IMG/VR virus record: IMGVR_UViG_3300008266_011056
Direction: 5' to 3' (one strand)
Source: an uncultured virus (IMG/VR IMGVR_UViG_3300008266_011056)
Taxonomy: Duplodnaviria > Heunggongvirae > Uroviricota > Caudoviricetes
DNA length: 64,000 nucleotides
Numbering within the stretch: position 1 is the first letter of the stretch; the number at the start of each line of letters is the position of its first letter. Positions 1-38,219 of this stretch are shown here, piece by piece. Below the pieces are notes generated by a model. It was not told the DNA's origin. It did not search any database and was given only the letters and a program-made list of their open reading frames with translations. Both the position numbers and the translations under genes were made by a program.

Positions 1-3
1 ACT

Positions 4-177
4 TTAGCCATTTAATTGTTTGCTCAATACTTCGATTTCATCTTTAAGTTGTAGTTTCTTCTTTTTCATATGTTTTACAAGATTATCATCTTTGAAATGC
101 CTATACTCCTCATCAATAATTTTATCTAAATCGTCGTGTTGTTTTTGAAGCGCTTCAAGATAATCTACTTTTTTCAT
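4..177 (-). CDS. Small coiled-coil protein, YdcH/DUF465-like (57 aa, not in ORF track)
   Basis: Manual translation MKKVDYLEALQKQHDDLDKIIDEEYRHFKDDNLVKHMKKKKLQLKDEIEVLSKQLNG*. The H-x-x-L-D and KKxKLxLKDEI patterns are typical of DUF465. A further ATG (MAK...) at 11 runs off the window. Confidence 0.7.
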   Translation of the reverse strand: MKKVDYLEALQKQHDDLDKIIDEEYRHFKDDNLVKHMKKKKLQLKDEIEVLSKQLNG

Positions 178-180
178 ATG

Positions 181-693
181 CTATCCTTCGAAAAGATCTT
201 CGTTCCACTCCCTATGACCTTCACGCCATGCCATGTTGCTCTGTGTTTCTCTTACTTCTACTCTATAACACCATAAGCGATCGGCTTCACCGGGACCCCA
301 CATGTCGGGGATATATACCCCGTTTACATACTTATAAAGCATATCAGCTAGACCCTCACATCCTAACCTAGGTAGTATAGTAAGCTTAGCTAATTTTTTC
401 TCCTGTAGTTTATAAAACATATCAATTTCTGGATCATCCTGAGCTACAAGTAAAGTATGATCAAATTGATCCTCTAGGACGTTCTTCAGCTCTTTTAAAC
501 CACCATAATCAGCTACCCAATTACGTACATCTAGATGATCTGTACCGAAATAAAACTTCATGTTAAAACTGTAACCATGAATTAGGTTACAATGTGAGTC
601 GGCACGCCATTGGCGATATGCACAAGGAAACGAATCGTGATACTCTTTTGTACTTACATATTTGTAAGTTCTTGAAATGCGTTGATCGGACAT
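181..693 (-). CDS. queD: 6-carboxy-5,6,7,8-tetrahydropterin synthase (QueD/PTPS family)
   Basis: CxxxHGY motif (HCNLIHGYS), DYGGLK, FDHTLL and VEVRET; located in an operon with folE, queE and queC. Confidence 0.9.
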   Translation of the reverse strand: MSDQRISRTYKYVSTKEYHDSFPCAYRQWRADSHCNLIHGYSFNMKFYFGTDHLDVRNWVADYGGLKELKNVLEDQFDHTLLVAQDDPEIDMFYKLQEKKLAKLTILPRLGCEGLADMLYKYVNGVYIPDMWGPGEADRLWCYRVEVRETQSNMAWREGHREWNEDLFEG

Positions 694-702
694 TTTTACC
701 TC

Positions 703-1656
703 TTAATAAAACTTTATTTTTCTATAGTTAGAAGATTTATACCATTCATCTAGATCATTAACTATATCTGATAATGTACAAACTGGTGTCCATTGTAATA
801 TCATTTTAGCTTTAGATATATCTGCTACTAGCTTATCACAATCTCCAGGTCTTCTAGGACCTATGCGTATTGGTTGTTCACCAATCTTCTCAAACACTTT
901 GTTAATAATTTGCTGGTTGGACATGCCTACACCACTACCTAGATTATATACTCCTATGGCATGTCTTTCCATAGCTCTAACATGTGCTGTAGCAATATCG
1001 TTAATATGAATATAATCTCTTACACAAGTACCGTCTTCAGTTTTATAATCCGTACCATTTAATACAAATGATTTAGATTCGAATAACTGAGGAAAGATAT
1101 GTGTCGAGTGAGGTTCTTGACCATGTATACTACCTACGGATCCACATGCATTGAAATACCTGAAGGCTGTATATTTAAAGTCATGAGCTTTTCTATAGTC
1201 TTCAAGAACCTCCTCAACCATTAACTTTGTTCTGGCATAAGGTGATTGTGGTTCTTTTACAGCTTCTTCGTCTAATAGATTGTTATTAGTTCTATAGACA
1301 GATGCACTACTACTAAACATGAAGTGTGTGTGTTTTTGATATCTACTAAGTAAGCTTATTAGATGTATAGTCTTAGATACGTTATTTACATAATAGTTGT
1401 CTGGCCAATGTATACTTGGACCAACTAGGTTTGTACCCGCACAGTGTATTACAGCATCAAACTTATATTGCTGTAAAAATTCTGGAGTAATAACATCTAA
1501 TATGTCCCCCTTATAGAACTTATCTATGTAGGGGTTAATTCTTTCTCGGTATACTTTATCAACACCGATTACATTATGTTTTAACCTATTTAACTCAATG
1601 CAGATAGCGCCACCAATAAAACCGGTAGCGCCTGTAACGAGAATATTCTTTGCCAT
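703..1656 (-). CDS. galE: UDP-glucose 4-epimerase (NAD-dependent epimerase/dehydratase)
   Basis: VTGATGFIG Rossmann motif, FSSSASVY, YxxxK (YARTK), RYFNACG, DGTCVRDYIH, YNLGSG, RRPGD. Confidence 0.88.
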   Translation of the reverse strand: MAKNILVTGATGFIGGAICIELNRLKHNVIGVDKVYRERINPYIDKFYKGDILDVITPEFLQQYKFDAVIHCAGTNLVGPSIHWPDNYYVNNVSKTIHLISLLSRYQKHTHFMFSSSASVYRTNNNLLDEEAVKEPQSPYARTKLMVEEVLEDYRKAHDFKYTAFRYFNACGSVGSIHGQEPHSTHIFPQLFESKSFVLNGTDYKTEDGTCVRDYIHINDIATAHVRAMERHAIGVYNLGSGVGMSNQQIINKVFEKIGEQPIRIGPRRPGDCDKLVADISKAKMILQWTPVCTLSDIVNDLDEWYKSSNYRKIKFY

Positions 1657-1660
1657 AATG

Positions 1661-2164
1661 TTATACTTGGCTATATTTTTTATCGTGCTCTTTGTTTATA
1701 CCGTAATCACCATCATAGTTATGTAGTGCTTCGGCATCAAACGATAGATACTGACCTACCCTTGTACCCTTTTTAATCCTCGCCGTACCAACCTGAATAT
1801 GTAGTACCCCGGCCATAACACCATGATAACCAGAATCATACAAACCTGAAGTAATGAAGCAGCCGTTTCTGTTAAGAGTGCTCCTAGTAATGACCCAACC
1901 AGCTTCACCCTCTCCCACATGGATGATGTTCTCCATAACGATCTCATAAGACCCCGGTGAAAGCGTAAAATATCCATCCTCGTCAGGAAAGATTTCCGTA
2001 GACCCACGATGTTTTTTATGATCATTACTAATCTCAAATATTTGTTCGTTAATGGAATATACTTTATCTAGTCTCAGGTCTATTGCATTAGGCTGTACGT
2101 CACCTTCTTGTACATTAGTGAGAGTTGTTTTGCTGTTGGATCCAGCTACATGCTTCATAATCAC
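1661..2164 (-). CDS. dCTP deaminase / trimeric dUTPase family protein
   Basis: QPNAIDLRL, RSTLNRNG, GLYDSGYHG, RVGQ and C-terminal YDGDYG motifs. Confidence 0.8.
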   Translation of the reverse strand: MIMKHVAGSNSKTTLTNVQEGDVQPNAIDLRLDKVYSINEQIFEISNDHKKHRGSTEIFPDEDGYFTLSPGSYEIVMENIIHVGEGEAGWVITRSTLNRNGCFITSGLYDSGYHGVMAGVLHIQVGTARIKKGTRVGQYLSFDAEALHNYDGDYGINKEHDKKYSQV

Positions 2165-2775
2165 TCCGGTATAAAATAAGGATTCTCTTTTGTATCAAAA
2201 CTATGTATTTCAGACATAGGTAGTTCTTTATAGTTATGTAAGTTGATTCTGAATATTTTATTAGGTGGTAATAATGTACTACCTTCGAACTCAGTAGAAG
2301 ATATGTTTAGATTCTCGTCATAATAAAGAGGAGAAATTTCATTTCGGAAAACCATCAACTCATAGTTATTATAGTATACACAGGCAAAAGTACCATCTAC
2401 TTCGGATAACGCATGATAACCTTTATAAACCAGTTTTTCATGTAACCAGAGTGTATCCCAGTACCCTTCAGGTATATTAGATTGTTTAATAATACCATTA
2501 TGCCATAGGTACGTACCGTTAACTACACTGGGGTGCTGATTATCGTTATCTGTAGTTGGTGCTTGACTATGCCCTACATAGTAATAACCTGGTGCACCTA
2601 TTTTAGAAATAAAATCTTCAGGATAAGGTTCTCTTTCTTGGAAAAGATTTTGTATAACAGCAACTGCTTCTGCTTTAAAGATGCCTAATGAGTAACCAAG
2701 CTCACCTCGATATGCATTTAGCTTATAAAGTTTATTGAGTGTGTTTACATCAAAAGAACAGAATATAGCGCACAT
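2161..2775 (-). CDS. Stand-alone class II (Ntn) glutamine amidotransferase domain protein
   Basis: N-terminal M-C nucleophile, YRG, GHSQAPT, QHP, WHNGII, DT, GTFAC and FRNEISPL; directly downstream of queC. Confidence 0.75.
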   Translation of the reverse strand: MCAIFCSFDVNTLNKLYKLNAYRGELGYSLGIFKAEAVAVIQNLFQEREPYPEDFISKIGAPGYYYVGHSQAPTTDNDNQHPSVVNGTYLWHNGIIKQSNIPEGYWDTLWLHEKLVYKGYHALSEVDGTFACVYYNNYELMVFRNEISPLYYDENLNISSTEFEGSTLLPPNKIFRINLHNYKELPMSEIHSFDTKENPYFIPE

Positions 2776-2776
2776 A

Positions 2777-3538
2777 TTATACTTTCATTTTACTAATCAA
2801 GTCATCCCAAGGTATACTCATAGAGTAAGTCTTAGGATCTCTTTCACCTATCTTAGCAAAGTTAGCGATTCTTTCAGAGCAACTAGGACATTTACCGCAT
2901 GAGTCTCCATCTTCATTGGGATTATAGCATGTTAATGTGAAAGCAGTCAATTGTAGATTGCCTTCCATTTCCCGAAGTAGCTGTAACTCATCATACTTGG
3001 ATAGTTTACTAAACGGTGCTACCAGTTTAATTTTTATAATTCTATTTTCTGATAGTAGATCGTTTACTTTATTAACCCACCTTTGAGTAGTATCATGATA
3101 ACCATACTCGTCATGTACCTGTAAGCCACAAAGAATAGTATCTACGTTTCTCGTTTCAGCATAGGCTGCTGCAATAGACATTAAGATCATATTACGATTA
3201 GGTACATATGTCTTTGGTCTAGGATCACCTAACACTTCTTTAATCGTTGGCATGGCGATATCTTTATCTACATTGGCTGAAAAGCCTTTAGATATATCAC
3301 CTAAGAACGAAGCATCTATTACTTTATGAGTAACACGAAGTATAGCAGTTGAAATACCTGCCATAGTAATCTCTTTTGATTGCTTTTGACCATAATCAAA
3401 AGTTAAGGCAGATACGTTTTTACTACCATATTTTTCTACAGCCAATCTCATAGCAATAGTAGAATCCATACCACCGGATAAAATAACTACACATCCGGAA
3501 GTATCTGGTAAAAGGTCTAGGGCGTCATTTAATGTCAT
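2777..3538 (-). CDS. queC: 7-cyano-7-deazaguanine (preQ0) synthase
   Basis: SGGMDS PP-loop, FDYGQK, TYVPNRN, GYHD and the TCY...CGKCPSC zinc site. Confidence 0.95.
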   Translation of the reverse strand: MTLNDALDLLPDTSGCVVILSGGMDSTIAMRLAVEKYGSKNVSALTFDYGQKQSKEITMAGISTAILRVTHKVIDASFLGDISKGFSANVDKDIAMPTIKEVLGDPRPKTYVPNRNMILMSIAAAYAETRNVDTILCGLQVHDEYGYHDTTQRWVNKVNDLLSENRIIKIKLVAPFSKLSKYDELQLLREMEGNLQLTAFTLTCYNPNEDGDSCGKCPSCSERIANFAKIGERDPKTYSMSIPWDDLISKMKV

Positions 3539-3737
3539 CTCTGTACTTAGTTCTTTCTTTTTGTATACGATGAATATAAACTACAGCATCCATAAGTTCT
3601 TCTTTCAGATGCTGTATCCATTGATCAAAGTCTAAGTCAGTACGTTCAGTAGTTACCCCGTACTTATTAAACCCATGTTGCGAACGAGTTACAAACTGTT
3701 CACATATTTCATTTACATTATTATCTGGTGACTTCAT
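3525..3737 (-). CDS. Small phage protein, putative all-alpha (MazG-like) NTP pyrophosphohydrolase
   Basis: KYG...WIQHLKEELMDAVVY carries an EExxD metal-binding helix typical of the MazG-like fold; 70 aa. Confidence 0.5.
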   Translation of the reverse strand: MKSPDNNVNEICEQFVTRSQHGFNKYGVTTERTDLDFDQWIQHLKEELMDAVVYIHRIQKERTKYRDDIK

Positions 3738-4204
3738 TCTGCACCACTTTCTCTATATTCATAAATTGGCTCGTCGGGCACTACATAAGGAAAAGTTACA
3801 GGTACTCTAGATTCAAAACAGGTATAGTATGATTTTTGTTTTTCACCAGTTTCTTTATCAATATACCATTCCCAAAATACCTTACCATCGATGTCATATG
3901 CTTCACCATTCTTACCATCTTTGAATACAGAACCACAACGTTTATTTTGGAAATGTGGGTATCCACTCCTTTGTGTAACTTCTGACCATTCATCATCTTC
4001 ACCTGTCAATGGTGATAGTGGTTTAAAGTTAAGAAGTTTTTTAAGACATTGTAAGGCATAACTGGCTGAAAACCCAGAGTGACCTTCTTCAGCGAACTCA
4101 TGTACCATATGAAGGAGATGTTTACGCATAATACCATTCATATCTCCGTCATCGGTCATACCGATACGATCTAATTCATTTTCTGCATAGGCAACTAATC
4201 CCAT
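3734..4204 (-). CDS. Conserved hypothetical phage protein
   Basis: 156-aa ORF with RBS (AGGAT) and ATGA overlap; EGHSGFSA, PLSPLTGEDDEW and QNKRC..VFKD motifs that I recall from phage hypothetical proteins. Confidence 0.7.
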   Translation of the reverse strand: MGLVAYAENELDRIGMTDDGDMNGIMRKHLLHMVHEFAEEGHSGFSASYALQCLKKLLNFKPLSPLTGEDDEWSEVTQRSGYPHFQNKRCGSVFKDGKNGEAYDIDGKVFWEWYIDKETGEKQKSYYTCFESRVPVTFPYVVPDEPIYEYRESGAE

Positions 4205-4211
4205 AATATCC

Positions 4212-5135
4212 TCACTGTCTAGCTGTTTTAGTACATGCTGTAATTGAACTGGCTATGTTACCGTACGTGTAGAGCACATCATGGCTTGAAGCTCGTACAG
4301 GGTTAATATCAATACCACCTCTCCGAGTATAGAGGCATGCCACGAATAGTTCCTCGGGTTGTAATAGATCCCACAAACGTTTGTAAATACATTCACAAAT
4401 TTCTTCGTGGAAGTGGTTCTCTTTGCGCATGCTAACAATATATTGCAATAGAGATTCTGGAGTAACTGCCTTATCACCTTTAATATGTACATACACATCA
4501 CCCCAATCCGGTTGATTAGTTACTCGACAATTTGAACGTAGAGAATGTGAACGCCATCTTTCATAACGACCAATAGAAGGAACAACTTCTAAAATACTGG
4601 CAGACTCATTATAGTCTGTAAACTGCATTTTTTCTACATTACAGTAAGATTCGAGAGATACAAAATCACTACTAATAGGTCTTGTAGTATCTACATCTCC
4701 AAAGAACGCATATACTTCTACTTCACCACCGGTAGCATCACTCAAGTCTCTGGCAATCCTATCTTCTACCATCCAGAAGTCAGATGTAGATGTAATGAGA
4801 CGCGCCATGTTATAAGAGTTAAGGTATAGCTTTACTGATTTAGACTCCACAATATTAGGGGAATCAGAATCATAGACAAACTTAAGCCAACCAGAGACGG
4901 GAAAACCATTATCCAAAAGAGTTGAGAACTCATAAGCGTTCCACGCATCGACTCCCACAAACGGTAAGTCATCTTCTTGAATATCATATTGCGTCCTGTT
5001 TAAATGTCTTGGTACAGCTACTAGTAGAGTAGGATCTACATCGTCAGGTGTAACATAAGGTTTTACAACCGTACCGTCACCTGCCTTACCTAAGTGAACT
5101 GATACTAGCTTATTAAGTTCTTCTTGATTGCTCAT
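4212..5135 (-). CDS. queF: NADPH-dependent preQ0 reductase, bimodular (type II) QueF
   Basis: DAWNAYEFS, QueF motif ESKSVKLYLNS, catalytic LRSNCRVTNQPDWG, FHEEICE and YTRRGGIDINP. Start placed at MSNQ (the ORF track extends to 5144). Confidence 0.95.
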   Translation of the reverse strand: MSNQEELNKLVSVHLGKAGDGTVVKPYVTPDDVDPTLLVAVPRHLNRTQYDIQEDDLPFVGVDAWNAYEFSTLLDNGFPVSGWLKFVYDSDSPNIVESKSVKLYLNSYNMARLITSTSDFWMVEDRIARDLSDATGGEVEVYAFFGDVDTTRPISSDFVSLESYCNVEKMQFTDYNESASILEVVPSIGRYERWRSHSLRSNCRVTNQPDWGDVYVHIKGDKAVTPESLLQYIVSMRKENHFHEEICECIYKRLWDLLQPEELFVACLYTRRGGIDINPVRASSHDVLYTYGNIASSITACTKTARQ

Positions 5136-5670
5136 GCTCAACATCCTTTATATATTTAAGTACCGTATCTACTCTTTCTCTAACTGAACCTACTAGGTAG
5201 ACGGTAGTTAATTGTTTTTCTTTAATATAACTATCAAATAATGTTACAATTCTATCTCTAAAATGCCTATTAATACTTCTTGTTCCGTCATCTTCTATTT
5301 CAAATTCTGGTGGAATATAAAAGACTAGGTCATACTTTGGCATGAGTTTGTTGAATATGTTATCAGCAAAATCATATGTCTTCTGAGTTATTTTTTTATT
5401 TTCTGCTAAGTAGTGAGAGTAAACAATACCGTCTAATGCACATCTATCTGATATCATATTGTCGTTCATAAAGACATTAACAATATGTTCTTGCATTATC
5501 AATCTCTGCGTAATGTCATCACCTTCTTCATTTATGTTTAACCCATAACCCTTAACACGTCTAGTCACTTCGGTACAAAAGGTATACTGCTTTAATGCTT
5601 CTTCAGAACGTAAAGCATTAATTAATGTAGTCTTACCTACTGATTGAGCGCCGCTTATCGCTATTTTCAT
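5113..5670 (-). CDS. P-loop nucleoside/nucleotide kinase (NadR/thymidylate-kinase-like AAA protein)
   Basis: Walker A GAQSVGKTT, DRCALD motif and EDDGTR lid. Confidence 0.75.
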   Translation of the reverse strand: MKIAISGAQSVGKTTLINALRSEEALKQYTFCTEVTRRVKGYGLNINEEGDDITQRLIMQEHIVNVFMNDNMISDRCALDGIVYSHYLAENKKITQKTYDFADNIFNKLMPKYDLVFYIPPEFEIEDDGTRSINRHFRDRIVTLFDSYIKEKQLTTVYLVGSVRERVDTVLKYIKDVEHEQSRRT

Positions 5671-6196
5671 TTAACTTTCCCCACATAAACTTTTCCCATA
5701 AGTATAGCGATTTTCTCTTTAATAGGCTATACAATTCGTCTAATGAATTAGCTGTATTCGGTACGCCTGTCTGGTCGACAATAGGACCTTCATCTACACC
5801 TGCTGTTACTTTGTGTATAACGCAACCTACCCAACGATGCCTGGCTTCCCAAGCTTTTACTTGTGGGTCTTTACCTTTAAGTTCAGGGTATGCTGTAATG
5901 TAGCCGGGATGGCCGTTATAGATTTCAAATCGTTCACAAACGTCTGGTGGTATAATTCTTAAATACCCGTGTAGAGTAATCAGTACTTCTTTAGGGTTAT
6001 TATAATTATCACGAAGAAATTGCATTAGACCATCATGCCCTGCTACGTACATTGGTATACTTAGAAGTACCATATCAGGGTGATATGTTGAAACATCTTT
6101 GTTATTAGTAAGAATTAAATCAGGTGAGCGACCTAGTTCTTTAGATAGATGAACTATCTCTGATCCTGTTTGACTAAAAAAAGCAATCCAGTACAT
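5633..6196 (-). CDS. PurN-like formyltransferase, probable preQ1 formyltransferase (DpdN-like)
   Basis: FSQTGS, HGYLRII, NGHPG (N-x-H-P), YPELKG and HKVTAGVDEGPI GAR-transformylase motifs; lies between the dpdA-like gene and queF. Confidence 0.8.
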   Translation of the reverse strand: MYWIAFFSQTGSEIVHLSKELGRSPDLILTNNKDVSTYHPDMVLLSIPMYVAGHDGLMQFLRDNYNNPKEVLITLHGYLRIIPPDVCERFEIYNGHPGYITAYPELKGKDPQVKAWEARHRWVGCVIHKVTAGVDEGPIVDQTGVPNTANSLDELYSLLKRKSLYLWEKFMWGKLNENSDKRRSISR

Positions 6197-7011
6197 TACT
6201 CTGTACCTTTTACATACGATCTAAAGTAATTAATGTTTGCTTGAATAAAACTCATCTGCTCATGATCGGGTACGGAATATAATAAGTCGACCAGTTTAAT
6301 GGACTGCTTATCAACCAAACCACCAGGCTCGTAAAGAGTATTAAGAAGCCCATGAACCACAGGGCTGGAAGTATCCATGGTCTCAATCCATTCGAACCCT
6401 TGTCTATAAAACAAGAATTCGATAGGTAGTGAACAACCCAGTAGGTGATGTGGTTTATCCTTGTTAATAATTCCTTCATTTAACATTCTCGTTAGTGTTT
6501 GTACTCTACCTAGTGTAAAGGACATCCATTTGTTAGGGTGCTTATATAAATCTTCATAATAACTATAGTCAAATGAAAAAGCAATTTTATCTACACCTAG
6601 TATATCTAGTTCCTCATAACATGTAACTAGATCCCTATAATTTTTGCCTTGAACGACACCAATAGATTTTCCTGGTAGATCAGGGAATAGCTCTTTAAAC
6701 ATCATAGCATTACCAATTGTTCTTTCCATATTCTCTAGAACATCTGGTATAATATACTCTGTAGGTTTAAGCTGGTTAACATATTTTGCAAACGTATTCA
6801 TGTTAAAAGCTTCACCTAATTCAAACACCGAGTTATCTAAGATAACTTTTCTTCCTTGAGCTAGTGACTCCTCAAAAAACTTATAGTATAGTGGCTCTGT
6901 TTCAAACAGATGAACTAGAGCATAGTCATAATCATTAAATGCTATAGATTTTCCTAGTAAAGATAGTGGTACTTCATGGCTGATTAACATATATTTTTTT
7001 CCATTGCTCAT
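6196..7011 (-). CDS. Divergent TGT-fold deazaguanine transglycosylase (DpdA3-like)
   Basis: TGT barrel motifs in order: ILDNSVF (DSGGF equivalent), IIPDV, GVVQG, HHLLG, MDTSSP. No C-terminal zinc cluster. Real start may be MLISHE at 6990. Confidence 0.75.
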   Translation of the reverse strand: MSNGKKYMLISHEVPLSLLGKSIAFNDYDYALVHLFETEPLYYKFFEESLAQGRKVILDNSVFELGEAFNMNTFAKYVNQLKPTEYIIPDVLENMERTIGNAMMFKELFPDLPGKSIGVVQGKNYRDLVTCYEELDILGVDKIAFSFDYSYYEDLYKHPNKWMSFTLGRVQTLTRMLNEGIINKDKPHHLLGCSLPIEFLFYRQGFEWIETMDTSSPVVHGLLNTLYEPGGLVDKQSIKLVDLLYSVPDHEQMSFIQANINYFRSYVKGTE

Positions 7012-7342
7012 TAAGATTACGAACTTCCTGAATAGCTGCGTATCTAGTAGATTTGCTCATCTTAACTATTTCAGTTACCCCTACAATTTTTTCTTCTAAC
7101 CAAAAATTCTTAGGATATTTTTTCTTCAATCTCTCTTCTGTTTGCTCAATAACACTTTTGTCTGGATGATAAGCGGTGCAAAGAATACGTATATCCCACT
7201 TTGAGTATTGCTCTGGCTCAAAACGAAATCTATCAGCAGCATCTTTATAACCTGTGTAACCAAATTTTAAAAATGTATCACCATTTACCTTATCGGTGAA
7301 TTCTGCTAAGTATATCTTAGCACCCCTCATATATCGATTCAT
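6974..7342 (-). CDS. GIY-YIG-like (T5orf172-like) nuclease domain protein
   Basis: KIYL...FLKFGYT...DRF, a helix with E (EQTEERL) and GVTE near the C-terminus; 122 aa. Confidence 0.5.
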   Translation of the reverse strand: MNRYMRGAKIYLAEFTDKVNGDTFLKFGYTGYKDAADRFRFEPEQYSKWDIRILCTAYHPDKSVIEQTEERLKKKYPKNFWLEEKIVGVTEIVKMSKSTRYAAIQEVRNLNEQWKKIYVNQP

Positions 7343-7344
7343 AA

Positions 7345-8022
7345 TTATTTTTTAATCAAGGTCATAAACTCAGCACGTGCTTCTGGTTCACTTCTAAAAC
7401 AACCACCAAGCTTAGCTGTGTAGGTATAAGACGAATGATCTTCTACACCTCTGCTCTTTACACAGTAGTGTGTACCTTCAATTACAACAGCAATATCATC
7501 TGTACCCAGAATAAACGCTAGTGCATGATAGATTTGTTCTGCAATACGTTCCTGTACTTGAGGTCTACGTGCAAAATATTCAACGATACGATTAAGTTTA
7601 GATAAACCTAATACTTTACCTTTAGGAATATAAGCCACATGGGCCTTACCATCAATAGTAACAAAATGGTGTTCACAGTTAGACATTAGTGTAATGTCCT
7701 TCTCGATAACCATTTCATCGTACCCCATCTTGTTCTCGATGACAGTACATTTAGGAAAGTTCTCTGGTTTCAAACCCCAGAAGATTTCATTTACATACAT
7801 CTTAGCTACTCGCAGAGGAGTATCAGTCAATGAGTCATCTTCACGATCAAGACCAAGAATATCCATAATAGCAGCAAAGTGCTTTTCGATCTTGTTAATC
7901 TTCGACTTTTCTTTTACATTAAGCTTATCGATGATAGTAGGTGTATGTACACCCTTCTCACGAAGATATTCCTCAATCTTATAACCTAGCTCTGGATCTG
8001 TTTTACCGACTTGTAATGACAT
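7345..8022 (-). CDS. folE: GTP cyclohydrolase I
   Basis: [40 protein letters not shown]. Confidence 0.96.
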
Positions 8023-8208
8023 TTAGTTCTCCGTTTCCGTATCCCATTTAATTTTTAACCAAGCTCTTTCATGTATGTAATGAGCTATTGTCATGAAGAT
8101 ATTAATTATGATAGCTCCCGACAAACCTGTCCATACAGCTGTTACCAAAGTAGCAACAATTCGCCATGTAATAGCTCTTACTATAGTCCTTCTATGTGTC
8201 TCTGACAT
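8023..8208 (-). CDS. Small membrane protein, DUF2061-like
   Basis: ETHRRTIVRAITWRIVAT...HYIHERAW pattern with a hydrophobic core; start overlaps the queE stop (TAATG). Confidence 0.7.
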   Translation of the reverse strand: MSETHRRTIVRAITWRIVATLVTAVWTGLSGAIIINIFMTIAHYIHERAWLKIKWDTETEN

Positions 8209-9041
8209 TATGTACCCCATTCATTTTTAAAAAGAGGTACCTGTAATCTATCTGAGTACCTAAAACCCTTATTCATAGCTAATTCAGCTACTTTTCTATT
8301 ATTCATGTGGTATACAGATTCTACACCACCTACAGGCATTAAATAAACCGGGCCACTAAAACCTGCACTTTGATATTGGAAGACAGCCTTTTGCGCTTCT
8401 TCCGCGTCTTCTTCTGTAGCAACGACAAACTTAAGATAGGTGTAACCAACCTTTTCATATTCACGAACAACTTCTGGCTTGATAGCCTCTTCCCACTTCT
8501 CACCTGATACAGATAGTTTAGGTGAAACTGAAAAAGTTATTTCGTCGTAATTAAAAGAGTTAGTTAGATATTTTCTAAACTCGCTAGACAGCTCTTGAGT
8601 ACCGTTAGTCTCAAAAGTAACTTCTTTAAGACCTAACATAAGTCTATGGCTTAGTAAATCAGGATAAGCTTTTTGCCATCCTAATAGAGGCTCACCACCA
8701 GTAATAACTAGATGTTCATCTTTCCATCTTTTATGCGGAAGCATTTCGATAATGGCTTGTGCAATTGCTTCACTATCCAGAACAGGGGATAAGTGCTTAA
8801 AGCGAGGATCCCAAGAAGCGTAAGAATCACAGCCAGTAGATACAAGAGGAAGATCCTGGTAAGATTTGTAACTATCAGGGTTAACTTTAAGATACTCATC
8901 GGTCCTTTCACCTTTAGGCATACCGAAACCTTCACATTTGAAGTTACATCCGAAGGTTCTTAGGAAGACAGAAGGTACGCCCATATAGCGACCTTCACCT
9001 TGAATGGAGTAAAATAACTCCGCGACTTTAATCTTTGACAT
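8208..9041 (-). CDS. queE: 7-carboxy-7-deazaguanine synthase (radical SAM)
   Basis: ELFYSIQGEG, FLRTFGCNFKC...GCDS, VITGGEPLL, ETNGT, SVSPKL, LKFVV, YLMP. Confidence 0.93.
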   Translation of the reverse strand: MSKIKVAELFYSIQGEGRYMGVPSVFLRTFGCNFKCEGFGMPKGERTDEYLKVNPDSYKSYQDLPLVSTGCDSYASWDPRFKHLSPVLDSEAIAQAIIEMLPHKRWKDEHLVITGGEPLLGWQKAYPDLLSHRLMLGLKEVTFETNGTQELSSEFRKYLTNSFNYDEITFSVSPKLSVSGEKWEEAIKPEVVREYEKVGYTYLKFVVATEEDAEEAQKAVFQYQSAGFSGPVYLMPVGGVESVYHMNNRKVAELAMNKGFRYSDRLQVPLFKNEWGT

Positions 9042-9058
9042 TAATGCTCCTAGTTAGA

Positions 9059-9083
9059 TGACGGGTGGAAGGGCACCCGATCA
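9059..9083 (-). promoter_or_regulatory. GC-rich hairpin in the 5' leader of the deazaguanine operon
   Basis: Minus strand TGA-T-CGGGTG-CCCTTC-CACCCG-TCA, just upstream of the queE RBS (AGGAG); no U-tract. Confidence 0.5.
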
Positions 9084-9095
9084 CACGTACATGAT

Positions 9096-9124
9096 ATAAT
9101 ATATTATTTATTCTAAATCATCAA
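9096..9124 (-). promoter_or_regulatory. Putative sigma70-type promoter for the deazaguanine operon
   Basis: TTGATG-N17-TATTAT on the minus strand, about 55 nt upstream of the queE ATG; also contains AATAAATA. Confidence 0.45.
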
Positions 9125-9686
9125 GAAAGTTTGGTATATTTTCTTCTTTTTCTTTCTTTTTCTTTTTAGTAGTTACTTCTCTTCGCTCAGGCTCTATAGT
9201 ATCTACTTGTTTACGCATAAGTTCTATAATGTGATTTGTATATTCTTCGTTATCCGAAGAATGTTCAAGTAACTGTTCAAAGTCAATATTTTCTAGTAAC
9301 TTATATTTTGTTGCTTGTTGTTTCTTTTCTTTCTGAATACGCCTTACAAACGCAAAGTAAATAATCTGTGTATAATATGCAAATGGGTTTGTAGATCGAG
9401 TAGGGTCAAATTTTTCTACAGCAGTAAGACAATTTTCGATACCGTCCGATATCATATCGTCTTTGTAGGAATAGTTTATAAAATTAGCTTTATAGGATAA
9501 GTGAGTTGCAATTTTTAAAAAACATTCTCCTAAGTAATTACTAACTCTAGGCTTTTCTAAACCATTAGCTACTGCGTGATCCACCTGCTTCTTATACTCA
9601 ACTAGCGCTTCAAAAAATTTTTTGTTATCTACGTAATGAGCAGGAACCTTTTTTTGTTCAGTGGTATGTTCTTGTTGCTCCATCAT
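9108..9686 (-). CDS. gp55: T4 gp55-like late transcription sigma factor
   Basis: HYVDNKKF, YLGECFLKIA, DDMISDGIENC, NPFAYYTQIIYFAFVRRIQKEKKQ. Start likely 9683 or 9686. Confidence 0.93.
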   Translation of the reverse strand: MMEQQEHTTEQKKVPAHYVDNKKFFEALVEYKKQVDHAVANGLEKPRVSNYLGECFLKIATHLSYKANFINYSYKDDMISDGIENCLTAVEKFDPTRSTNPFAYYTQIIYFAFVRRIQKEKKQQATKYKLLENIDFEQLLEHSSDNEEYTNHIIELMRKQVDTIEPERREVTTKKKKKEKEENIPNFLDDLE

Positions 9687-10098
9687 CTTCTTCCTCTTCA
9701 TCATACAACTCATCACGAGCTGATACTGCTTCCATTAATTGTTGCAAGATGTCACTTTCTGATAAAGCTTCAGGTGATGCTTCTTGACTCTCTTGAAATT
9801 CTTGATCGTGTTTCATTTGTAAAAACTCATTATACTGCTCTACAGCACTATCCGTAATATCTACAGCAGTTAGTATAGAAGAAGTAGGTATAACCATGAT
9901 GTTAGATTTAGATATCTTAATCCATGGTTGCATAATATAAGTTTCAATTACCATATTACCCCGAGGAAATCTTGCGGATCTAATCAGTACAGGGTCTTGT
10001 ATTTGTATAAAGGAGATAGTAGCACCGGGTAAATAATCATCACTCACCATAGCTATAACATCCTCACCATTAGTTAGCTTTAAAAATTTACATTGCAT
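9658..10098 (-). CDS. Conserved hypothetical protein of T4-like phages (between uvsW and gp55)
   Basis: LKLTNGEDVIA...PW motif, acidic tail, typical syntenic position. Confidence 0.7.
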   Translation of the reverse strand: MQCKFLKLTNGEDVIAMVSDDYLPGATISFIQIQDPVLIRSARFPRGNMVIETYIMQPWIKISKSNIMVIPTSSILTAVDITDSAVEQYNEFLQMKHDQEFQESQEASPEALSESDILQQLMEAVSARDELYDEEEEDDGATRTYH

Positions 10099-12029: not shown

Positions 12030-12941
12030 TTAAGCGCGCTCTAGCTCGTCAGGGAGGTCAATGGTCTTAATATCTTGACGAACAGGTTGTGTTGTCTCAA
12101 TAGGAGGCCCGAATTGAATGATAGCCTGAGGATTACCCTGGAAGCAGAAGTGACCATAGTGGTTAAGCGAGATAGAAGGGTCAAGCCAGATATCACCACC
12201 TAGTTCTTGCCAACGACGACAGAAGGTATAATCTTCTGATAGATAACGACGATCAATAGGATCGATCATAGTATCGAATAAGGCATAGAAATTATCACCT
12301 AGATCAGTATTACCTAGAGCAACATCGTTGTTGTATCTTAGCTCAGGATAGGCTTTGATCATTTTAAGAATTGCGTCTCTCTTAATCATCATAAAGCCGG
12401 TCCCTGCATCATGTAGTTTAATTACTCCACGATCTACAGCAACAGACTTTGCCTCTTTATCTACAAACTTGAAGTTAATAGCATAGTCAGAACCAAAGGC
12501 AGCAATCTCTTTATCAGACAATTGCTTGTCTTTAAAATTACTATCCTGCATGGTTTCTTTAATACGCTGCCATGCAACACCCTTTTTAGGATAAGCACCA
12601 ACCACTACATCTCTATCATGGTAGTATAGTTTAAGAACATCTTCTACTTGAAACTCAATATCAGCATCGATGAAGAGTAGATGTGTATAATCGGAGTTAA
12701 GGAAGTAAGCTACTAGCACATTACGTGCGCGTGTTACTAGCGATTCGTTAGCAATAGTACCAAATGCTAGAGGTACTTGATGCTGATTAAAGAATGTCAT
12801 CATCTTGATGACAGAACGGAAGTACGGTTCGTTTAACTGACCACCATAACAAGGAGTGGCGATGAAGAATTTATTCTTACGCAATTCTTCAACGTTGATC
12901 TGAATTTGTCTTTGATTCTTACTCATATTTTCTACTTCCAT
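12030..12941 (-). CDS. GT-A fold glycosyltransferase-like protein
   Basis: IATPCYGG, ESLVTRARN, DxD motif LLFIDADI, GAYPKK, GTGFMMI, YLSEDYTFCRRW. Confidence 0.8.
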   Translation of the reverse strand: MEVENMSKNQRQIQINVEELRKNKFFIATPCYGGQLNEPYFRSVIKMMTFFNQHQVPLAFGTIANESLVTRARNVLVAYFLNSDYTHLLFIDADIEFQVEDVLKLYYHDRDVVVGAYPKKGVAWQRIKETMQDSNFKDKQLSDKEIAAFGSDYAINFKFVDKEAKSVAVDRGVIKLHDAGTGFMMIKRDAILKMIKAYPELRYNNDVALGNTDLGDNFYALFDTMIDPIDRRYLSEDYTFCRRWQELGGDIWLDPSISLNHYGHFCFQGNPQAIIQFGPPIETTQPVRQDIKTIDLPDELERA

Positions 12942-17222: not shown

Positions 17223-18897
17223 TTGTCATTCTCTTTTTGCGTTTATGATTAGCATGATATTCTGCCATCATAATTTCGATATCTTCAGTAAATACTTTTT
17301 CAATACCATGTTCGAATTGTACGTTGTACCACTCTACGTGACCGTCTTCATTTGGCTCAGCATGATCACCTTCAACAACTTGACCTTCACCAAACAGCTC
17401 TGAGTATACATGCTTGGCACAATAGTGAGTGTCTTCTTCTTTAGTTAATTTTTTAGCTATACCAACCATTTGATCTTTTGGTTCAATAGGTTGTTTACCT
17501 TTTTCTTGCTCTTTACGCTTCATCATAGCATTATAAGCTATGGTACCTTTTCTAGGAGGCTTCATACCATAAGAAAAAGGTCCAGCTTCATCTAACTCAA
17601 CTTGTTCGCGTGTAACTGTAGTTACTTTTTTACCGCCACCTTTTAATACCTGTTGACGGCCTTGACTATTCATAGTATGTACTACTCTAGCTCCACCACT
17701 AGGCATAGAATATACTTCAATGCCATCGTCGGAGTCCTTATGTGTCTTTACTTTTTCTTTAGCATATTTAATAGCATGCTCTTTAGATGGAAACTGACTG
17801 GCTTCGTCAAGTTCAAATTCTTCTTTAACAGGTCTGTTTTTATAAGTGTTCCAATCTGAAGCGTCTGTGGAAACTACGTTATGTAAAGGTACTACATGAC
17901 CTAAGGATGATGTAGTATGAATTTTGGTGCCGGCACCACCACCTGTTTTATGAGAAACTTTGCTCATATAATGTTTGCCTTGGTGCTTGTATATGACTGT
18001 ACCACCATTGGCAATATCGTCTTCAGTATAAGCTTCAGAAATTTCAAATTCTTCTTTAACTCCAGCACGCTTATATGCTTTTTTTAAATTCGAATAATCT
18101 TTACCGGTCATCTTGGTGGTATATAACATAGCTTCACCAGGCCGTTTTGCAATCTGAGATACTTTCTTTTGAATATAACTTAAGGCTGTCTTCTTAGAGA
18201 CTTCATCGACTTGTTCTAAATCTTCGCCGACAACTTTTTTATTTGCTCGTTCGATACCTAGGGATCTATTCTTGGCTTTTCTGGTAGCAGTTTCTTTATC
18301 GGAGCCTTTACCAACACGGCTCATAAAGTTTTGATGACCAAAGTCTGAAATAGATTTGTTCATATAACTTTTAACAGTAGACTGTTTTAACTCGTCAACT
18401 TGTTCAACTTCTTCGCTATAATCACCATACTTTAATTTTTCTTTTGCTCTTTGTGCACCAGCTAAATGCTTAGCTGATTTAGGACCACCTTGCATACCAA
18501 CTCTATAAGCTTTAGATGCATAACGCTGGAGAGTCATTTGATTTAATTCATCTAACTCTTCTTTCATATTCCATGTCTTTGGTTCTTTAGTTGACGTGGC
18601 AATACGATAGTGAGCTCGCTCACCTTGATCCATACCTCGGTGTTCGTCTTTAGCGGATTCTAGATCTTTATGGGTACTTAAAACCTTATTAGTAGCTTTA
18701 TGTACTAAAGAATAATATTTTGTCTCTTCTGCAACACGCTTGGCTGTCTTTGTAGCAATAGCCATTTTCATACCCATAGGCATGTTTGGATTTTCACGCT
18801 CAATAGCCTTAGCTACTTCTTCGCGCTTTTTCTTTTCTGCTGGTGTTAATGTTTTTTCTTCCAGCGATGCTCTAAGGTTTAGAAAATTAATTGCCAT
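17212..18897 (-). CDS. Modular prohead core / internal head protein with repeated acidic linkers
   Basis: Position between the gp67-like gene and gp21; basic modules separated by EELDE, EQVDE, EFELDE and VELDE linkers. Confidence 0.65.
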   Translation of the reverse strand: MAINFLNLRASLEEKTLTPAEKKKREEVAKAIERENPNMPMGMKMAIATKTAKRVAEETKYYSLVHKATNKVLSTHKDLESAKDEHRGMDQGERAHYRIATSTKEPKTWNMKEELDELNQMTLQRYASKAYRVGMQGGPKSAKHLAGAQRAKEKLKYGDYSEEVEQVDELKQSTVKSYMNKSISDFGHQNFMSRVGKGSDKETATRKAKNRSLGIERANKKVVGEDLEQVDEVSKKTALSYIQKKVSQIAKRPGEAMLYTTKMTGKDYSNLKKAYKRAGVKEEFEISEAYTEDDIANGGTVIYKHQGKHYMSKVSHKTGGGAGTKIHTTSSLGHVVPLHNVVSTDASDWNTYKNRPVKEEFELDEASQFPSKEHAIKYAKEKVKTHKDSDDGIEVYSMPSGGARVVHTMNSQGRQQVLKGGGKKVTTVTREQVELDEAGPFSYGMKPPRKGTIAYNAMMKRKEQEKGKQPIEPKDQMVGIAKKLTKEEDTHYCAKHVYSELFGEGQVVEGDHAEPNEDGHVEWYNVQFEHGIEKVFTEDIEIMMAEYHANHKRKKRMTNGR

Positions 18898-18905
18898 GTT
18901 AGCCT

Positions 18906-19139
18906 TTACTCGACCTCTGTCGTATCTTCTTCAACATCAATTTCTTCTTCAGGTAAGTCTTCCTGCGAAACTTCATCGTCTTTTTTTCCGTAAATTGATT
19001 GTGCAATTTCTACCTTACGGTCATCTAATGCACTTGAAATCTTACTAGCAAGAACGGCATTAACACCTTGCTCTGCTTCAACGTTATCACCGTTAAGGAT
19101 GTCATCAATCATTTTGTTAATAATGTCTGCGTTTTCCAC
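18906..19139 (-). CDS. Prohead core protein gp67-like
   Basis: Small acidic ORF after the portal gene; KISSALDDRKVEIAQS pattern; GTG start with AAGGAG RBS. Confidence 0.7.
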   Translation of the reverse strand: MENADIINKMIDDILNGDNVEAEQGVNAVLASKISSALDDRKVEIAQSIYGKKDDEVSQEDLPEEEIDVEEDTTEVE

Positions 19140-19164
19140 AATAACTCCTTGAAAAATTATATAA

Positions 19165-32674: not shown

Positions 32675-32680
32675 ATCTAA

Positions 32681-37597: not shown

Positions 37598-37598
37598 A

Positions 37599-37955
37599 TT
37601 AGCTCAATTGTTCGTATGATACAAAAATATTAATAGCGTTGTTTGCACTAGCAAATGCTGAAATAGTGTCATTTTCCTCTAGATACATCGACATGTCTTT
37701 TGCTAGTAAAGTTAATGTAGTTCTAGTAGGAACTGTCATGGTGTTAGCCATAATTACAGTATTAGACCCTCTATTAAACAACACCGTTACATCTGCCGCA
37801 GAGTTACCTCTATTATGAGCAAAGATAGTATTTATTTTTAATAAAGCATTAGTATCACCGGCGTTAGACACGACCGTAGATGCTAAGGTAGTTATATTTG
37901 ATACACTAGTTCTACCTATAATAACGGTAGAATTTGCGATATTTAACGCACTCAT
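37599..37955 (-). CDS. Small virion structural protein (paralog of 43223..43561)
   Basis: N...ADVTV...VP...L....YLEENDTI...AS pattern shared with 43223..43561. Confidence 0.6.
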   Translation of the reverse strand: MSALNIANSTVIIGRTSVSNITTLASTVVSNAGDTNALLKINTIFAHNRGNSAADVTVLFNRGSNTVIMANTMTVPTRTTLTLLAKDMSMYLEENDTISAFASANNAINIFVSYEQLS

Positions 37956-37964
37956 TATTTCTCC

Positions 37965-38210
37965 TTATTGGCCAAAAATTACGGAAAGGGCAGTTAATCT
38001 ACCAAAGATAGCCCCTCCATTAAGTTTAGGCCCTGTAACAGAATTATCAGCCAATTTATCCGTGGTAATAGCTTGATCTTGCAAGTCAACAGTTGCTACT
38101 GCACCAGCGGCAATTTTATCTGTTGTCACCGAATTATTAGCTAATTTAGCAGTATCAATGCTATCGTTTTCAACAACATTTTCTGCTGGTTTAGATCCTA
38201 TGTATGCCAT
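37965..38210 (-). CDS. Small fibre-associated protein with 10-aa repeats
   Basis: MAYIG N-terminus; repeats of the form (S/A)(V/I)TTDK(L/I)A; AAGG RBS. Confidence 0.65.
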   Translation of the reverse strand: MAYIGSKPAENVVENDSIDTAKLANNSVTTDKIAAGAVATVDLQDQAITTDKLADNSVTGPKLNGGAIFGRLTALSVIFGQ

Positions 38211-38219
38211 GTAAAACCT

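Follow-up and report, generated by a model that had tools for sequence, protein, structure and literature searches.

How does a phage come to replace all the guanine of its DNA by a 7-deazaguanine base: by exchanging it in finished DNA, or by remaking the nucleotide before it is polymerized? The question is raised by a gene cluster at positions 181-9041 of a stretch of 64,000 nucleotides from the uncultured virus IMGVR_UViG_3300008266_011056 (IMG/VR; Caudoviricetes), the whole stretch being referred to here as the window. The cluster encodes enzymes for the synthesis of preQ0 (7-cyano-7-deazaguanine) and preQ1 (7-aminomethyl-7-deazaguanine), the small transglycosylase DpdA3, which has the fold of the tRNA-guanine transglycosylases (TGT), the PurN-type formyltransferase DpdN, a P-loop kinase and a dUTPase-like protein (Table 1). 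The reading that we favour, with a probability of about 0.55, is that the base would be swapped at the nucleotide pool, prior to replication, and not in finished DNA, a route all of whose steps we infer. Clusters of this kind have been described already; what is added here is the exchange of kinases beside DpdA3, counted and set against a control, the linkage of the dUTPase-like gene, two cultured phages that carry a triad of such genes, the assignment of one gene to the Tad3 family and a reading of the amidotransferase encoded next to QueC.

By homology, preQ0 would be made by FolE, QueD, QueE and QueC and then reduced to preQ1 by QueF. These five proteins, DpdA3 and DpdN are all encoded by open frames with family matches, so that everything that can be checked in the sequence for a gene set making fdPreQ1, the formylated form of preQ1, is present. 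The formyl transfer by DpdN to the aminomethyl group of preQ1 is itself described as 'predicted' (PMC10516641). According to the same source, complete substitution of dG by fdPreQ1 has been measured in a single phage, Flavobacterium phage immuto_2-6A, with 345,000 fdPreQ1 per 10^6 nucleotides and no dG peak (NAR 2023, PMC10516641). Since the order of the core genes and identities of 38-50% match this fully substituted phage, the cluster is to be regarded as a new member of a known fdPreQ1 system, and fdPreQ1 is with good confidence the predicted product in the virion DNA. The sequence-only reading had proposed fdPreQ1 or a further-decorated base in place of G; the complete set of DpdA3/DpdN type upholds the former as the best prediction, while the decorated variant fared worse, as discussed below.

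The evidence on how G would be replaced comes from the kinase and from the dUTPase-like gene, which bear on the manner of the replacement and not on its identity, and whose meaning the sequence-only reading had missed. An IMG/VR scan with the single protein returned only 5 near-identical loci, and an alignment of DpdA3 was used to reach further. The first survey comprised 87 loci (L001, L002, the 5 near-identical ones and the best 80 of 528 confirmed IMG/VR matches to the DpdA3 alignment); the DpdA3 open reading frame (ORF) was called in 83, the contig end cutting the gene in the other four. Gene counts by phmmer at 1e-5 (Table 1; a small phosphoribosyltransferase, PRTase, was present in 14 loci) are lower bounds, many loci being short. 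With the loci gathered into 50 groups (<85% DpdA3 identity), the kinase was the most constant neighbour (43/50), followed by DpdN (39/50) and QueF (38/50). The genes were recounted with hidden Markov models (HMMs) of DpdA3 and of three kinase families, namely AAA_28, to which the kinase of the window belongs, T4 gp1-type deoxynucleoside monophosphate (dNMP) kinases (DNMK) and DUF3310, in loci that extend 2.5 kb or more to either side of DpdA3. A kinase-type gene was located within 3 kb in 55 of 55 loci of the first survey (47 AAA_28, 7 DUF3310 and 1 with both; 26 short-flank loci were dropped) and in 33 of 33 loci of a second survey, centred on the dUTPase-like gene (11 AAA_28, 17 DNMK and 5 DUF3310; 35 dropped). 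As a control within the same loci, 140 kinase-type hits fell within 3 kb on either side of DpdA3 (770 kb) versus 1 outside (1,046 kb); all 140 were on the strand of DpdA3 and 129 were downstream.

The exchange of one kinase for another is exact in locus L088, whose order is DpdA3-DpdN-DUF3310-QueF, and loci L121 and L171 have the order DpdA3-DNMK-dUTPase-like. The DNMK proteins are of T4 gp1 type (PF21448 at 1e-20 and 2e-17; phrog_139 at 2e-39), and DUF3310 proteins match PHROGs labelled 'nucleotide kinase', e.g. phrog_236 at 5.6e-10. A profile search of the window's genome revealed neither a DNMK nor a DUF3310 gene. Its own kinase shares 38% and 36% identity with the counterparts that adjoin DpdA3 in immuto_2-6A and in phage CP220, respectively; among cultured phages its relatives are found in Campylobacter firehammerviruses and in immuto phages (36-39% identity), directly after DpdA3, with more distant ones in Streptomyces phages (28.6%). 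A phmmer search of the kinase against the PDB gave no matches. Its structural model (predicted local distance difference test, pLDDT, 93.8) has as nearest folds deoxyadenosine kinase, thymidylate kinase, deoxycytidine kinase and the ribosylnicotinamide-kinase domain of NadR (E 5e-7 to 1e-5), Foldseek returning deoxyadenosine kinase 2jat at 4.7e-7, thymidylate kinase 5xai at 8e-7 and NadR 6gyf at 1.7e-6. Gly7, Ser10, Gly12, Lys13, Thr15, Asp75-Arg76, Asp128 and Arg131 are invariant in 34 homologues, corresponding to the Walker A, DR and DDG.R motifs. On this model, the kinase is a small-molecule nucleoside/nucleotide kinase. An ATPase role resembling that of DpdB was considered for it and rejected, since all three interchangeable families resemble small-molecule kinases or are labelled as such. 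The kinase is mentioned neither in the main text nor in one supplementary file of PMC10516641.

Gene fusions were sought among the 150 best of the 1,635 DpdA3 representatives at 50% identity, where 10 over-long proteins were scanned with Pfam. Two were fusions of DpdA3 with DpdN (P0137 and P0269, confirmed by phmmer), one of DpdA3 with DUF3310 (P0175) and one carried a NUMOD3 motif; the extra part of the remaining six had no Pfam match. By eye only, the extra parts of P0206 looked DUF3310-like, that of P0161 MazG-like and those of P0200 and P0167 GNAT-like. Locus L072, which has no DpdN, contains an AAA_28 kinase fused to a weak GNAT domain (L072:6123-7079; Acetyltransf_10 E 0.0023, below cut-off). 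The GNAT-type fusions suggest that acyl groups other than formyl may be used in some relatives.

The second recurrent element is a nucleotide-cleaving enzyme. The dUTPase-like protein falls into the dUTPase/dCTP deaminase (DCD) superfamily, PF00692 scoring 23 bits (cut-off 22) in addition to the matches in Table 1, and its score stays below the cut-offs of the dUTPase model NF002598 (89.6 bits, <130) and of the dCTP deaminase model TIGR02274 (41.6 bits, <92.8); the sequence does not tell a specificity for dUTP, dCTP or dGTP. For the second survey, an alignment of the subfamily of the window's protein retrieved 80 loci at 63-99% identity; the ORF was called in 79, of which the 65 with at least 2 kb upstream were kept and 14 were dropped. 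A DpdA3-type gene lay within 8 kb of the subfamily member in 58 of the 65, in two architectures. The first (19 loci) has the order of the window, DpdA3-DpdN-AAA_28 kinase-QueF-70-aa ORF-QueC-amidotransferase-dUTPase-like. The second lacks QueC and consists of a distant DpdA3-like gene, one small gene and then the dUTPase-like gene, the small gene being a T4 gp1-type dNMP kinase in 20 loci, DUF3310 in 17 and neither in 2. In this second architecture the genes for a phrog_1574 protein and gp45 come after the dUTPase-like gene; the phrog_1574 homologue of the window (12030-12941) lies on the other side of the cluster. As the flanking genes differ between the two architectures, the dUTPase-like gene travels with DpdA3 and not with the replisome genes.

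Other DpdA3 phages have other enzymes of this sort. The product of immuto gp208, directly upstream of DpdA3, is PRA-PH/MazG-like (3.1e-10), gp055 of CP220 codes for an HD-phosphohydrolase with an AAA_33 kinase as its fusion partner, and in Cellulophaga phage phiST a dimeric-dUTPase or MazG gene is reported near DpdA3 (PMC10516641). Where the flanks of DpdA3 in the first survey reached 6 kb or more on either side, a gene of dNTP-cleaving type was present within 6 kb in 27 of 37 loci (PRA-PH-like 12, MazG 9, dUTPase-like 6).

The transglycosylase itself was matched by no Pfam or NCBIfam model, and tblastn with it did not reach the DpdA3 of phiST. It is 48.3% identical over 98% of its length (E 7e-74) to YP_010114477 of immuto_2-6A, annotated as DNA guanine transglycosylase, and 44-45% identical to proteins of Campylobacter firehammerviruses (CP220 gp056, 43.8%, E 1e-46). 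A model built with 40 diverse homologues (pLDDT 95.8) retrieved TGT in Foldseek at E 1e-9 and probability 1.00; VIA Z-scores were 19.1 with ArcTGT 1iq8, 18.4 with bacterial TGT 2pwv and 18.2 with the DNA preQ0 insertase DpdA 7ui4, over 235-241 residues at a root-mean-square deviation of 3.1-3.4 (235 residues and 3.4 for 7ui4). Asp59 and Asp90 are invariant and Asp213 is nearly invariant in the 40 homologues. Arg169, His189 and His34 are invariant residues as well. Asp213 pairs, in a weak match (E 0.13), with the Asp of SIDSTTP in 7ui4, the alignment spanning the HLLG...(S/T)IDxS/TxP segment, within which the presumed catalytic Asp lies. The conserved aspartates may be equivalent to Asp102 and Asp280 of TGT. 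Relation to the founding members of DpdA3 and the TIM-barrel fold of TGT and DpdA both agree with the proposal of the sequence-only reading that the TGT-like gene belongs to the DpdA family. The DpdA3 family is acidic (median isoelectric point 5.3, 3% above 7, n = 249), a weak hint in favour of exchange at the nucleotide pool, on which nothing is built. In metagenomes it amounts to 3,872 clusters at 90% identity, besides the 1,635 representatives at 50%.

The pool route would proceed as follows. The dUTPase-fold enzyme would cleave dGTP to dGMP, so emptying the dGTP pool and supplying the substrate; DpdA3 would put preQ1 in the place of guanine on the free deoxynucleotide or deoxynucleoside; DpdN would formylate the aminomethyl group; the AAA_28 kinase would phosphorylate the modified dNMP, which would be unacceptable to host kinases; and the T4-type polymerase of the phage would build DNA with fdPreQ1 in place of all G. 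DpdN is paralogous to glycinamide ribonucleotide (GAR) formyltransferase, an enzyme that in its natural reaction acts on a 5'-phosphoribosyl compound bearing a free aminomethyl group. The route is preferred because a dedicated kinase is constant though drawn from three unrelated families, a dNTP-cleaving enzyme is usual and the tailoring enzyme is a paralogue of GAR formyltransferase; because the kinase model resembles deoxynucleoside, thymidylate and NadR kinases and not DNA-dependent ATPases; and because fusions tie the steps together (DpdA3 with DpdN, DpdA3 with DUF3310, AAA_28 with a weak GNAT domain). Three published observations also argue for it. DpdA3 phages alone among 7-deazaguanine phages attain complete replacement, other DpdA classes reaching at most about 30%; DpdA3 alone produced no DNA modification in Escherichia coli; and the nucleoside of 7-amido-7-deazaguanine (ADG) was detected in infected cells (all reported in PMC10516641).

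Several points weigh against the pool route. For this phage and for every DpdA3 its steps are drawn from gene patterns and homology. We know of no TGT-superfamily member shown to act on a mononucleotide, every characterized one acting on a polynucleotide, and in fold the DpdA3 model is as close to DpdA, a DNA enzyme, as it is to TGT. For a T4-like phage there are independent reasons to encode dNMP kinases, and DUF3310 is designated a kinase on the strength of PHROG labels, the two PHROGs that match it best being of unknown function. No dNTP pyrophosphatase was detected by four profiles in 10 of the 37 well-flanked loci, 7 of the 65 loci of the dUTPase-like subfamily have no DpdA3, and the dUTPase-like enzyme could be the ordinary dUTPase of the phage, no other having been seen in the genome. 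Each scan contributed its best 80 hits, loci that are interrelated, and the two surveys share at least 8 contigs, so that their counts are not independent; moreover, the DNMK and DUF3310 HMMs were seeded from loci of the second survey itself, and ORF calling was crude. Finally, the authors who defined DpdA3 read its action as post-replicative (PMC10516641), a view that later papers repeat, and a paper of December 2025 cites 7-deazaguanine as an example of modification at the nucleic-acid level.

In that published model DpdA3 exchanges guanine for preQ1, or for formyl-preQ1, in replicated DNA and DpdN acts on the base or on the DNA; the kinase, the dUTPase-like protein and the PRTase are ordinary pool or salvage genes that share the operon, recycling for instance the released guanine. 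It was proposed by the authors of the family, and DpdA1, DpdA2 and bacterial DpdA act on DNA (PMC10516641), with which the TGT fold of DpdA3 and its alignment with DpdA across the presumed catalytic Asp agree. The small PRTase, 35% identical to immuto gp211 and encoded 3.7 kb downstream of the cluster in the genome, could salvage the released guanine, and the loci with no recognizable dNTP pyrophosphatase also fit. Yet the model leaves without a role the kinase that was found at every well-flanked locus of both surveys, as opposed to the single hit in the 1,046 kb elsewhere, and for which three unrelated families swap in one slot, one of them fused to DpdA3. Hosts already have a guanylate kinase, and complete replacement is otherwise typical of pool-level pathways. 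The failure of DpdA3 alone to modify DNA in E. coli (PMC10516641) speaks against it as well. On balance we hold exchange in replicated DNA to be a serious but somewhat improbable alternative; a mixed route is possible. The literature searched contained no nucleotide-level mechanism for DpdA3 and no description of the kinase and pyrophosphatase pattern, and used the name DpdA3 only in PMC10516641.

If the pool route is extended to the family, DpdA3 would be no DNA transglycosylase but the first TGT-fold enzyme to swap a base on a free deoxynucleotide or deoxynucleoside, and replacement would be pre-replicative in the phages fully substituted with fdPreQ1, with the deoxynucleoside of ADG (dADG) or with 7-deaza-deoxyguanosine (dDG). 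A dUTPase-, MazG- or HD-type enzyme would cleave dGTP, the base would be swapped and tailored on the monophosphate, and an interchangeable kinase of AAA_28, T4 gp1 or DUF3310 type would phosphorylate it again, after which the polymerase would write the modified base into DNA. We put this extension at even odds; if true, it would explain why DpdA3 fails in E. coli without its partners. The comparative pattern bears on two questions, the way in which DpdA3 phages arrive at 100% substitution and the lack of activity of DpdA3 by itself, and the pool route, if true, would mean a new activity for the TGT fold and a minimal enzyme set for DNA fully substituted with 7-deazaguanine.

A different doubt concerns the base. 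The product could be deoxyarchaeosine (dG+), made through a split Gat-QueC, or formylation could be partial, or the base could be decorated further, e.g. with a sugar by way of the GalE-like enzyme. A fused Gat-QueC with DpdA yields dG+ in Escherichia phage 9g, and QueC of the window is directly followed by an N-terminal nucleophile (Ntn) amidotransferase; a GalE-like gene lies within the cluster and a separate sugar-modification cluster elsewhere in the genome, and GNAT-like domains stand in for DpdN in relatives (L072, and P0200 by eye). These alternatives are nevertheless unlikely. QueF and DpdN are intact and syntenic with those of immuto_2-6A; the GalE gene occurs in few related loci (8/83 in the first survey and 7/79 in the second) and at varying positions, and a Pfam scan found no glycosyltransferase within the cluster. 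As to dG+, the amidotransferase is unlike phrog_10428, the Gat-QueC family that QueC matches, and membership of the Gat-QueC type, in which the amidotransferase domain is fused N-terminally to QueC, is not supported, the two genes being separate and the amidotransferase downstream of QueC. Its homologues lie next to QueC in phages phi-Grn1 and phi-ST2, in whose DNA the deoxynucleoside of preQ1 (dPreQ1) and its methylated form (mdPreQ1) were measured and 0 dG+ (PMC10516641). Production of dG+ by a split Gat-QueC was accordingly considered and thought unlikely, since such homologues coexist with DNA free of dG+.

The amidotransferase deserves comment for the name given to it. 'GATase' is upheld, though weakly by sequence: Pfam GATase_6/7 matches are at E 0.015-0.019, below cut-offs, and the glutaminase domain of GlmS aligns from residue 1 at E 0.044, 4 of the 6 chains listed being GlmS; phmmer against the PDB gave no matches. 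The invariance of Cys2, directly after Met1, Arg23-Gly24, His92-Asn93-Gly94 and Asp127-Gly128 in 12 amidotransferase sequences adds support, RG and HNG being what we take to be motifs of class-II amidotransferases. The gene adjoins QueC in 24 of the 25 QueC-bearing loci of the dUTPase-like survey, always 3' of QueC where present, and homologues of 35-40% identity were found in 51 cultured phage records (49 of Vibrio phages, mostly KVP40-like, and 2 of Pseudomonas phage pf16), in many of which the matched stretch also touches the annotated QueC gene. Most likely it feeds QueC with ammonia from glutamine, a pairing that we infer from gene order; by its distribution it is a general companion of QueC and no marker of further decoration.

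The idea that the enzymes beyond the minimal pathway define a new, further-decorated variant found no support elsewhere either: the kinase is present also in immuto_2-6A and in nearly all DpdA3 loci, the epimerase and the putative nuclease occur in 8/83 and 6/83 related loci, and the supposed pyrophosphohydrolase is a candidate anti-defence gene of the Tad3 family, found only in near-identical relatives. Least probable of all, by a long way, is that preQ1 serves only queuosine in the tRNAs for Asp, Asn, Tyr and His, the TGT-like protein acting on tRNA alone: the genome has about 25 tRNA genes, including the four with GUN anticodons that receive queuosine, but the protein is a member of DpdA3, and the cultured phages of this family have DNA that is fully substituted; the 271 residues of the protein form the barrel only, about 235 of them aligning to chains that are 356-577 residues long; queuosine synthesis does not involve DpdN; and the TGT of the host would be enough for tRNA. 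These tRNA genes, at L009:11334-13896, L004:1149-2240 and 19058-19132, outside the window, include Asp(GUC), Asn(GUU), Tyr(GUA) and His(GUG), whose modification preQ1 made by the phage could also feed.

Table 1. Genes of the cluster in order of transcription, with the matches on which each name rests and the number of first-survey loci (of 83) that have the gene
Gene product	Positions	Strand	Matches	Loci of 83
QueE-like radical-SAM 7-carboxy-7-deazaguanine synthase	8208..9041	-	phrog_2076 2.8e-54; QueE NCBIfam models 1e-13 to 4e-16, all below cut-offs	29
DUF2061-like small membrane ORF, 65 aa	8023..8220	-	PF09834 1.6e-4, just below cut-off	6
FolE, GTP cyclohydrolase I	7345..8022	-	PF01227 2e-60; NF006824 307.8 bits (cut-off 202)	43
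Basic ORF, 122 aa, possibly nuclease-like	6974..7342	-	phrog_681 'endonuclease' 2.1e-05	6
DpdA3, minimal TGT-fold 7-deazaguanine transglycosylase, 271 aa	6196..7011	-	similarity to immuto YP_010114477	
DpdN, PurN-type formyltransferase, directly after DpdA3	5633..6196	-	PF00551 1.7e-10; 49.7% identity to immuto YP_010114479	68
AAA_28 P-loop nucleoside/nucleotide kinase	5113..5670	-	PF13521 1.9e-17, 64.4 bits (cut-off 27)	64
QueF, two-domain type, preQ0 to preQ1 reductase	4212..5144	-	QueF_N 1.5e-30 and QueF 3.1e-19; 47% identity to immuto QueF	59
Tad3-family protein, candidate anti-Thoeris inhibitor, 156 aa	3734..4204	-	PF25185 8.8e-40, 135.6 bits (cut-off 27), residues 1-112; PDB 9b7d_B 4.1e-13	4
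Conserved ORF, 70 aa, always before QueC	3525..3737	-	only PHROGs of unknown function	13
QueC, preQ0 synthase	2777..3538	-	PF06508 3.1e-51; TIGR00364 157.6 bits (cut-off 150.3)	28
Ntn (class-II) glutamine amidotransferase-like, 204 aa, QueC companion	2161..2775	-	phrog_12378 6e-41	11
dUTPase/DCD-fold dNTP pyrophosphatase-like	1661..2164	-	PF22769 1.4e-13, 51.6 bits (cut-off 27); PDB 9w59 1.8e-9	11
GalE-like NAD-dependent sugar-nucleotide epimerase	703..1656	-	PF01370 4.3e-45, 154.4 bits; TIGR01179 258.2 bits (cut-off 262.3)	8
QueD, 6-carboxytetrahydropterin synthase	181..693	-	PF01242 (PTPS) 1.2e-15; phrog_2389 4.9e-37	29

The 15 ORFs of the cluster are all on the minus strand, with gaps of at most 9 nucleotides, as ahead of queD, or overlaps of up to 38. 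Eleven of the twelve gene names given in the sequence-only reading hold, and the DUF2061-like ORF was missing from its list. The name that fails is 'MazG-like': neither 3734-4204 nor 3525-3737 gave a MazG or PRA-PH match with Pfam, NCBIfam or PDB profiles, the former being the Tad3-family gene and the latter an ORF with no detectable family. For this 70-aa ORF a likeness to MazG had been an impression by eye, dropped since the Pfam search (E up to 1) gave no match and the PDB profile search gave at best a nucleoporin at E 0.81. The Tad3 gene is an insertion between QueF and the 70-aa ORF, found only in loci whose DpdA3 is 100% identical; a candidate anti-Thoeris gene thus rides inside a DNA-modification operon, Tad3 being a direct inhibitor of the Thoeris protein ThsB according to a 2026 review. 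The name 'nuclease' for 6974-7342 stands on one weak PHROG match, and a homologue of this ORF follows FolE in locus L171. Tad3, GalE, the 122-aa ORF and the DUF2061 ORF would be lineage-specific passengers that bring no new chemistry. Consensus scans did no better than shuffled sequence, with 36 promoter-like sites (38.7 expected) and 3 terminator-like sites (5.1 expected), and an Rfam search of positions 1-10000 (E up to 1) returned a single small-RNA match at chance level and no preQ1 riboswitch. Gene packing alone is the basis on which transcription units can be described, and nothing is claimed beyond it.

The window corresponds to bases 70117-134116, read on the minus strand, of an IMG/VR record of 165,076 bp, which has direct terminal repeats and is rated 100% complete; the G+C content is about 36%. 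The rest of the window codes for T4-type head, tail and baseplate proteins, a gp55-like late sigma factor, UvsW and UvsY, and the genome outside it for a family-B polymerase, gp45, gp44/62, RegA, UvsX, gp41, gp59 and gp32, as well as NrdAB, ThyX, dCMP deaminase, PhoH, PstS and a phosphate porin. The source is an uncultured, probably marine, T4-like myovirus; when the cluster was compared by megablast with 50,697 phage records, nothing matched, and hence no close relative was found.

Further features of the genome were noted. The sugar-modification cluster mentioned above (L004:5249-10971 and 17990-19140, genome 5.2-19 kb) contains a GNAT protein, a DegT-type aminotransferase, an epimerase, a glycosyltransferase fused to a C-methyltransferase, further GT2 glycosyltransferases and a cupin. 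NifU-like, IscA-like and fatty-acid-desaturase-like genes are placed between NrdA and NrdB (L006:11770-13214, genome 45.8-47.2 kb), and the iron-sulphur genes among them could serve the radical-SAM protein QueE and a B12-binding radical-SAM protein (L009:4646-6106). ARAGORN made a tmRNA-like call, asterisked, with the tag peptide ANDEYYALAA at L007:7731-8153 (genome 58730-59152). A gp46/SbcC-like ATPase is split into two ORFs about 270 nucleotides apart (L008:1070-1537, AAA_23, N-terminal, and 1807-2733, SMC_N, C-terminal; genome 135069-136732), with a homing-endonuclease-like ORF of NUMOD3 type close by on the opposite strand (L008:4008-4559). Three structural proteins of 1592, 1638 and 1109 aa (window 27896-41953, minus strand) have in common a repeated N-terminal domain, phrog_3545, and a further protein of 2160 aa is encoded at 44356-50838. 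Outside this genome, locus L076 (8863-13515) and its sister loci L078, L080, L085, L086 and L093 represent a non-T4 lineage with MazG, DUF3310, a ThyX-like ORF, DpdA3 and DpdN followed directly by a family-A DNA polymerase, with no Que genes within 10 kb.

Given the size of the DpdA3 family, complete replacement of G may be common among marine and freshwater T4-like phages, which bears on the evasion of restriction and CRISPR and on the recovery of such phages by sequencing. The known systems resemble the one described here to different degrees. Phage 9g shares the association of a class-II amidotransferase with QueC; in the window, however, the amidotransferase is separate, downstream of QueC and alongside QueF and DpdN. 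Bacterial DpdA shares the fold of DpdA3, but no partner like the ParB-like DpdB was seen in the window, where the partner is a small-molecule kinase. The closest system is that of immuto_2-6A, with which the order DpdA3-DpdN-kinase-QueF is shared (immuto gp206 to gp202; 48%, 50%, 38% and 47% identity). FolE (43%), QueD (37.5%) and the small PRTase (35%) are likewise shared; all of these are in the window except the PRTase, which sits 3.7 kb beyond its start. The two differ in that a family-A polymerase lies next to the immuto cluster, while the phage of the window is T4-like with a family-B polymerase; in that a PRA-PH/MazG-like gene precedes DpdA3 in immuto, instead of which the window has the dUTPase-fold gene after QueC; and in that the window adds the Ntn amidotransferase, Tad3, GalE and small ORFs.

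Firehammervirus CP220, with dADG, has a DpdA3 44% identical to that of the window and an AAA_28 kinase (36%) directly after it. CP220 and phiST, the latter with dDG, also share complete replacement of G and a nucleotide hydrolase beside DpdA3 (the HD-kinase fusion in CP220, MazG or dimeric dUTPase in phiST), but they stop at bases derived from 7-carboxy-7-deazaguanine and do without QueC, QueF and DpdN (PMC10516641). The dUTPase-like subfamily was found in only four cultured phages. Two of these, Aeromonas phage Ahp1_CNU-2021 (L175:4554-6537) and Vibrio phage D479 (L176:4606-6495), carry overlapping genes for a DpdA3-like protein, a T4 gp1-type dNMP kinase and the dUTPase-like protein, downstream of FolE and, in Ahp1, also of QueE; all are annotated as hypothetical except the dNMP kinase of D479. 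Their dUTPase-like proteins are 39-49% identical to that of the window, whereas the kinase is DNMK instead of AAA_28 and DpdA3 is distant (phmmer E 1e-6 to 1e-7; family profile 4e-17 to 4e-23); no gene for QueC, QueF or DpdN appeared in the stretches that were examined. The DNA of both is predicted from these genes to be substituted with 7-deazaguanine, and the two phages offer cultured material for such study.

The pathway to hydroxymethylcytosine in T4 employs the dCTPase gp56, the dCMP hydroxymethylase gp42 and the dNMP kinase gp1. In the PurZ pathway of Z-genomes, dGMP is converted to dZMP, which is then phosphorylated (PMC12783734). There is no homology to gp42 or PurZ in the cluster, where the base-converting enzyme would be a TGT-fold transglycosylase, and the comparison is one of analogy and not of family membership. 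By that analogy, the co-encoding of a dNTP-cleaving and a base-converting enzyme with a dedicated dNMP kinase would lead in each of these systems to complete replacement of a base.

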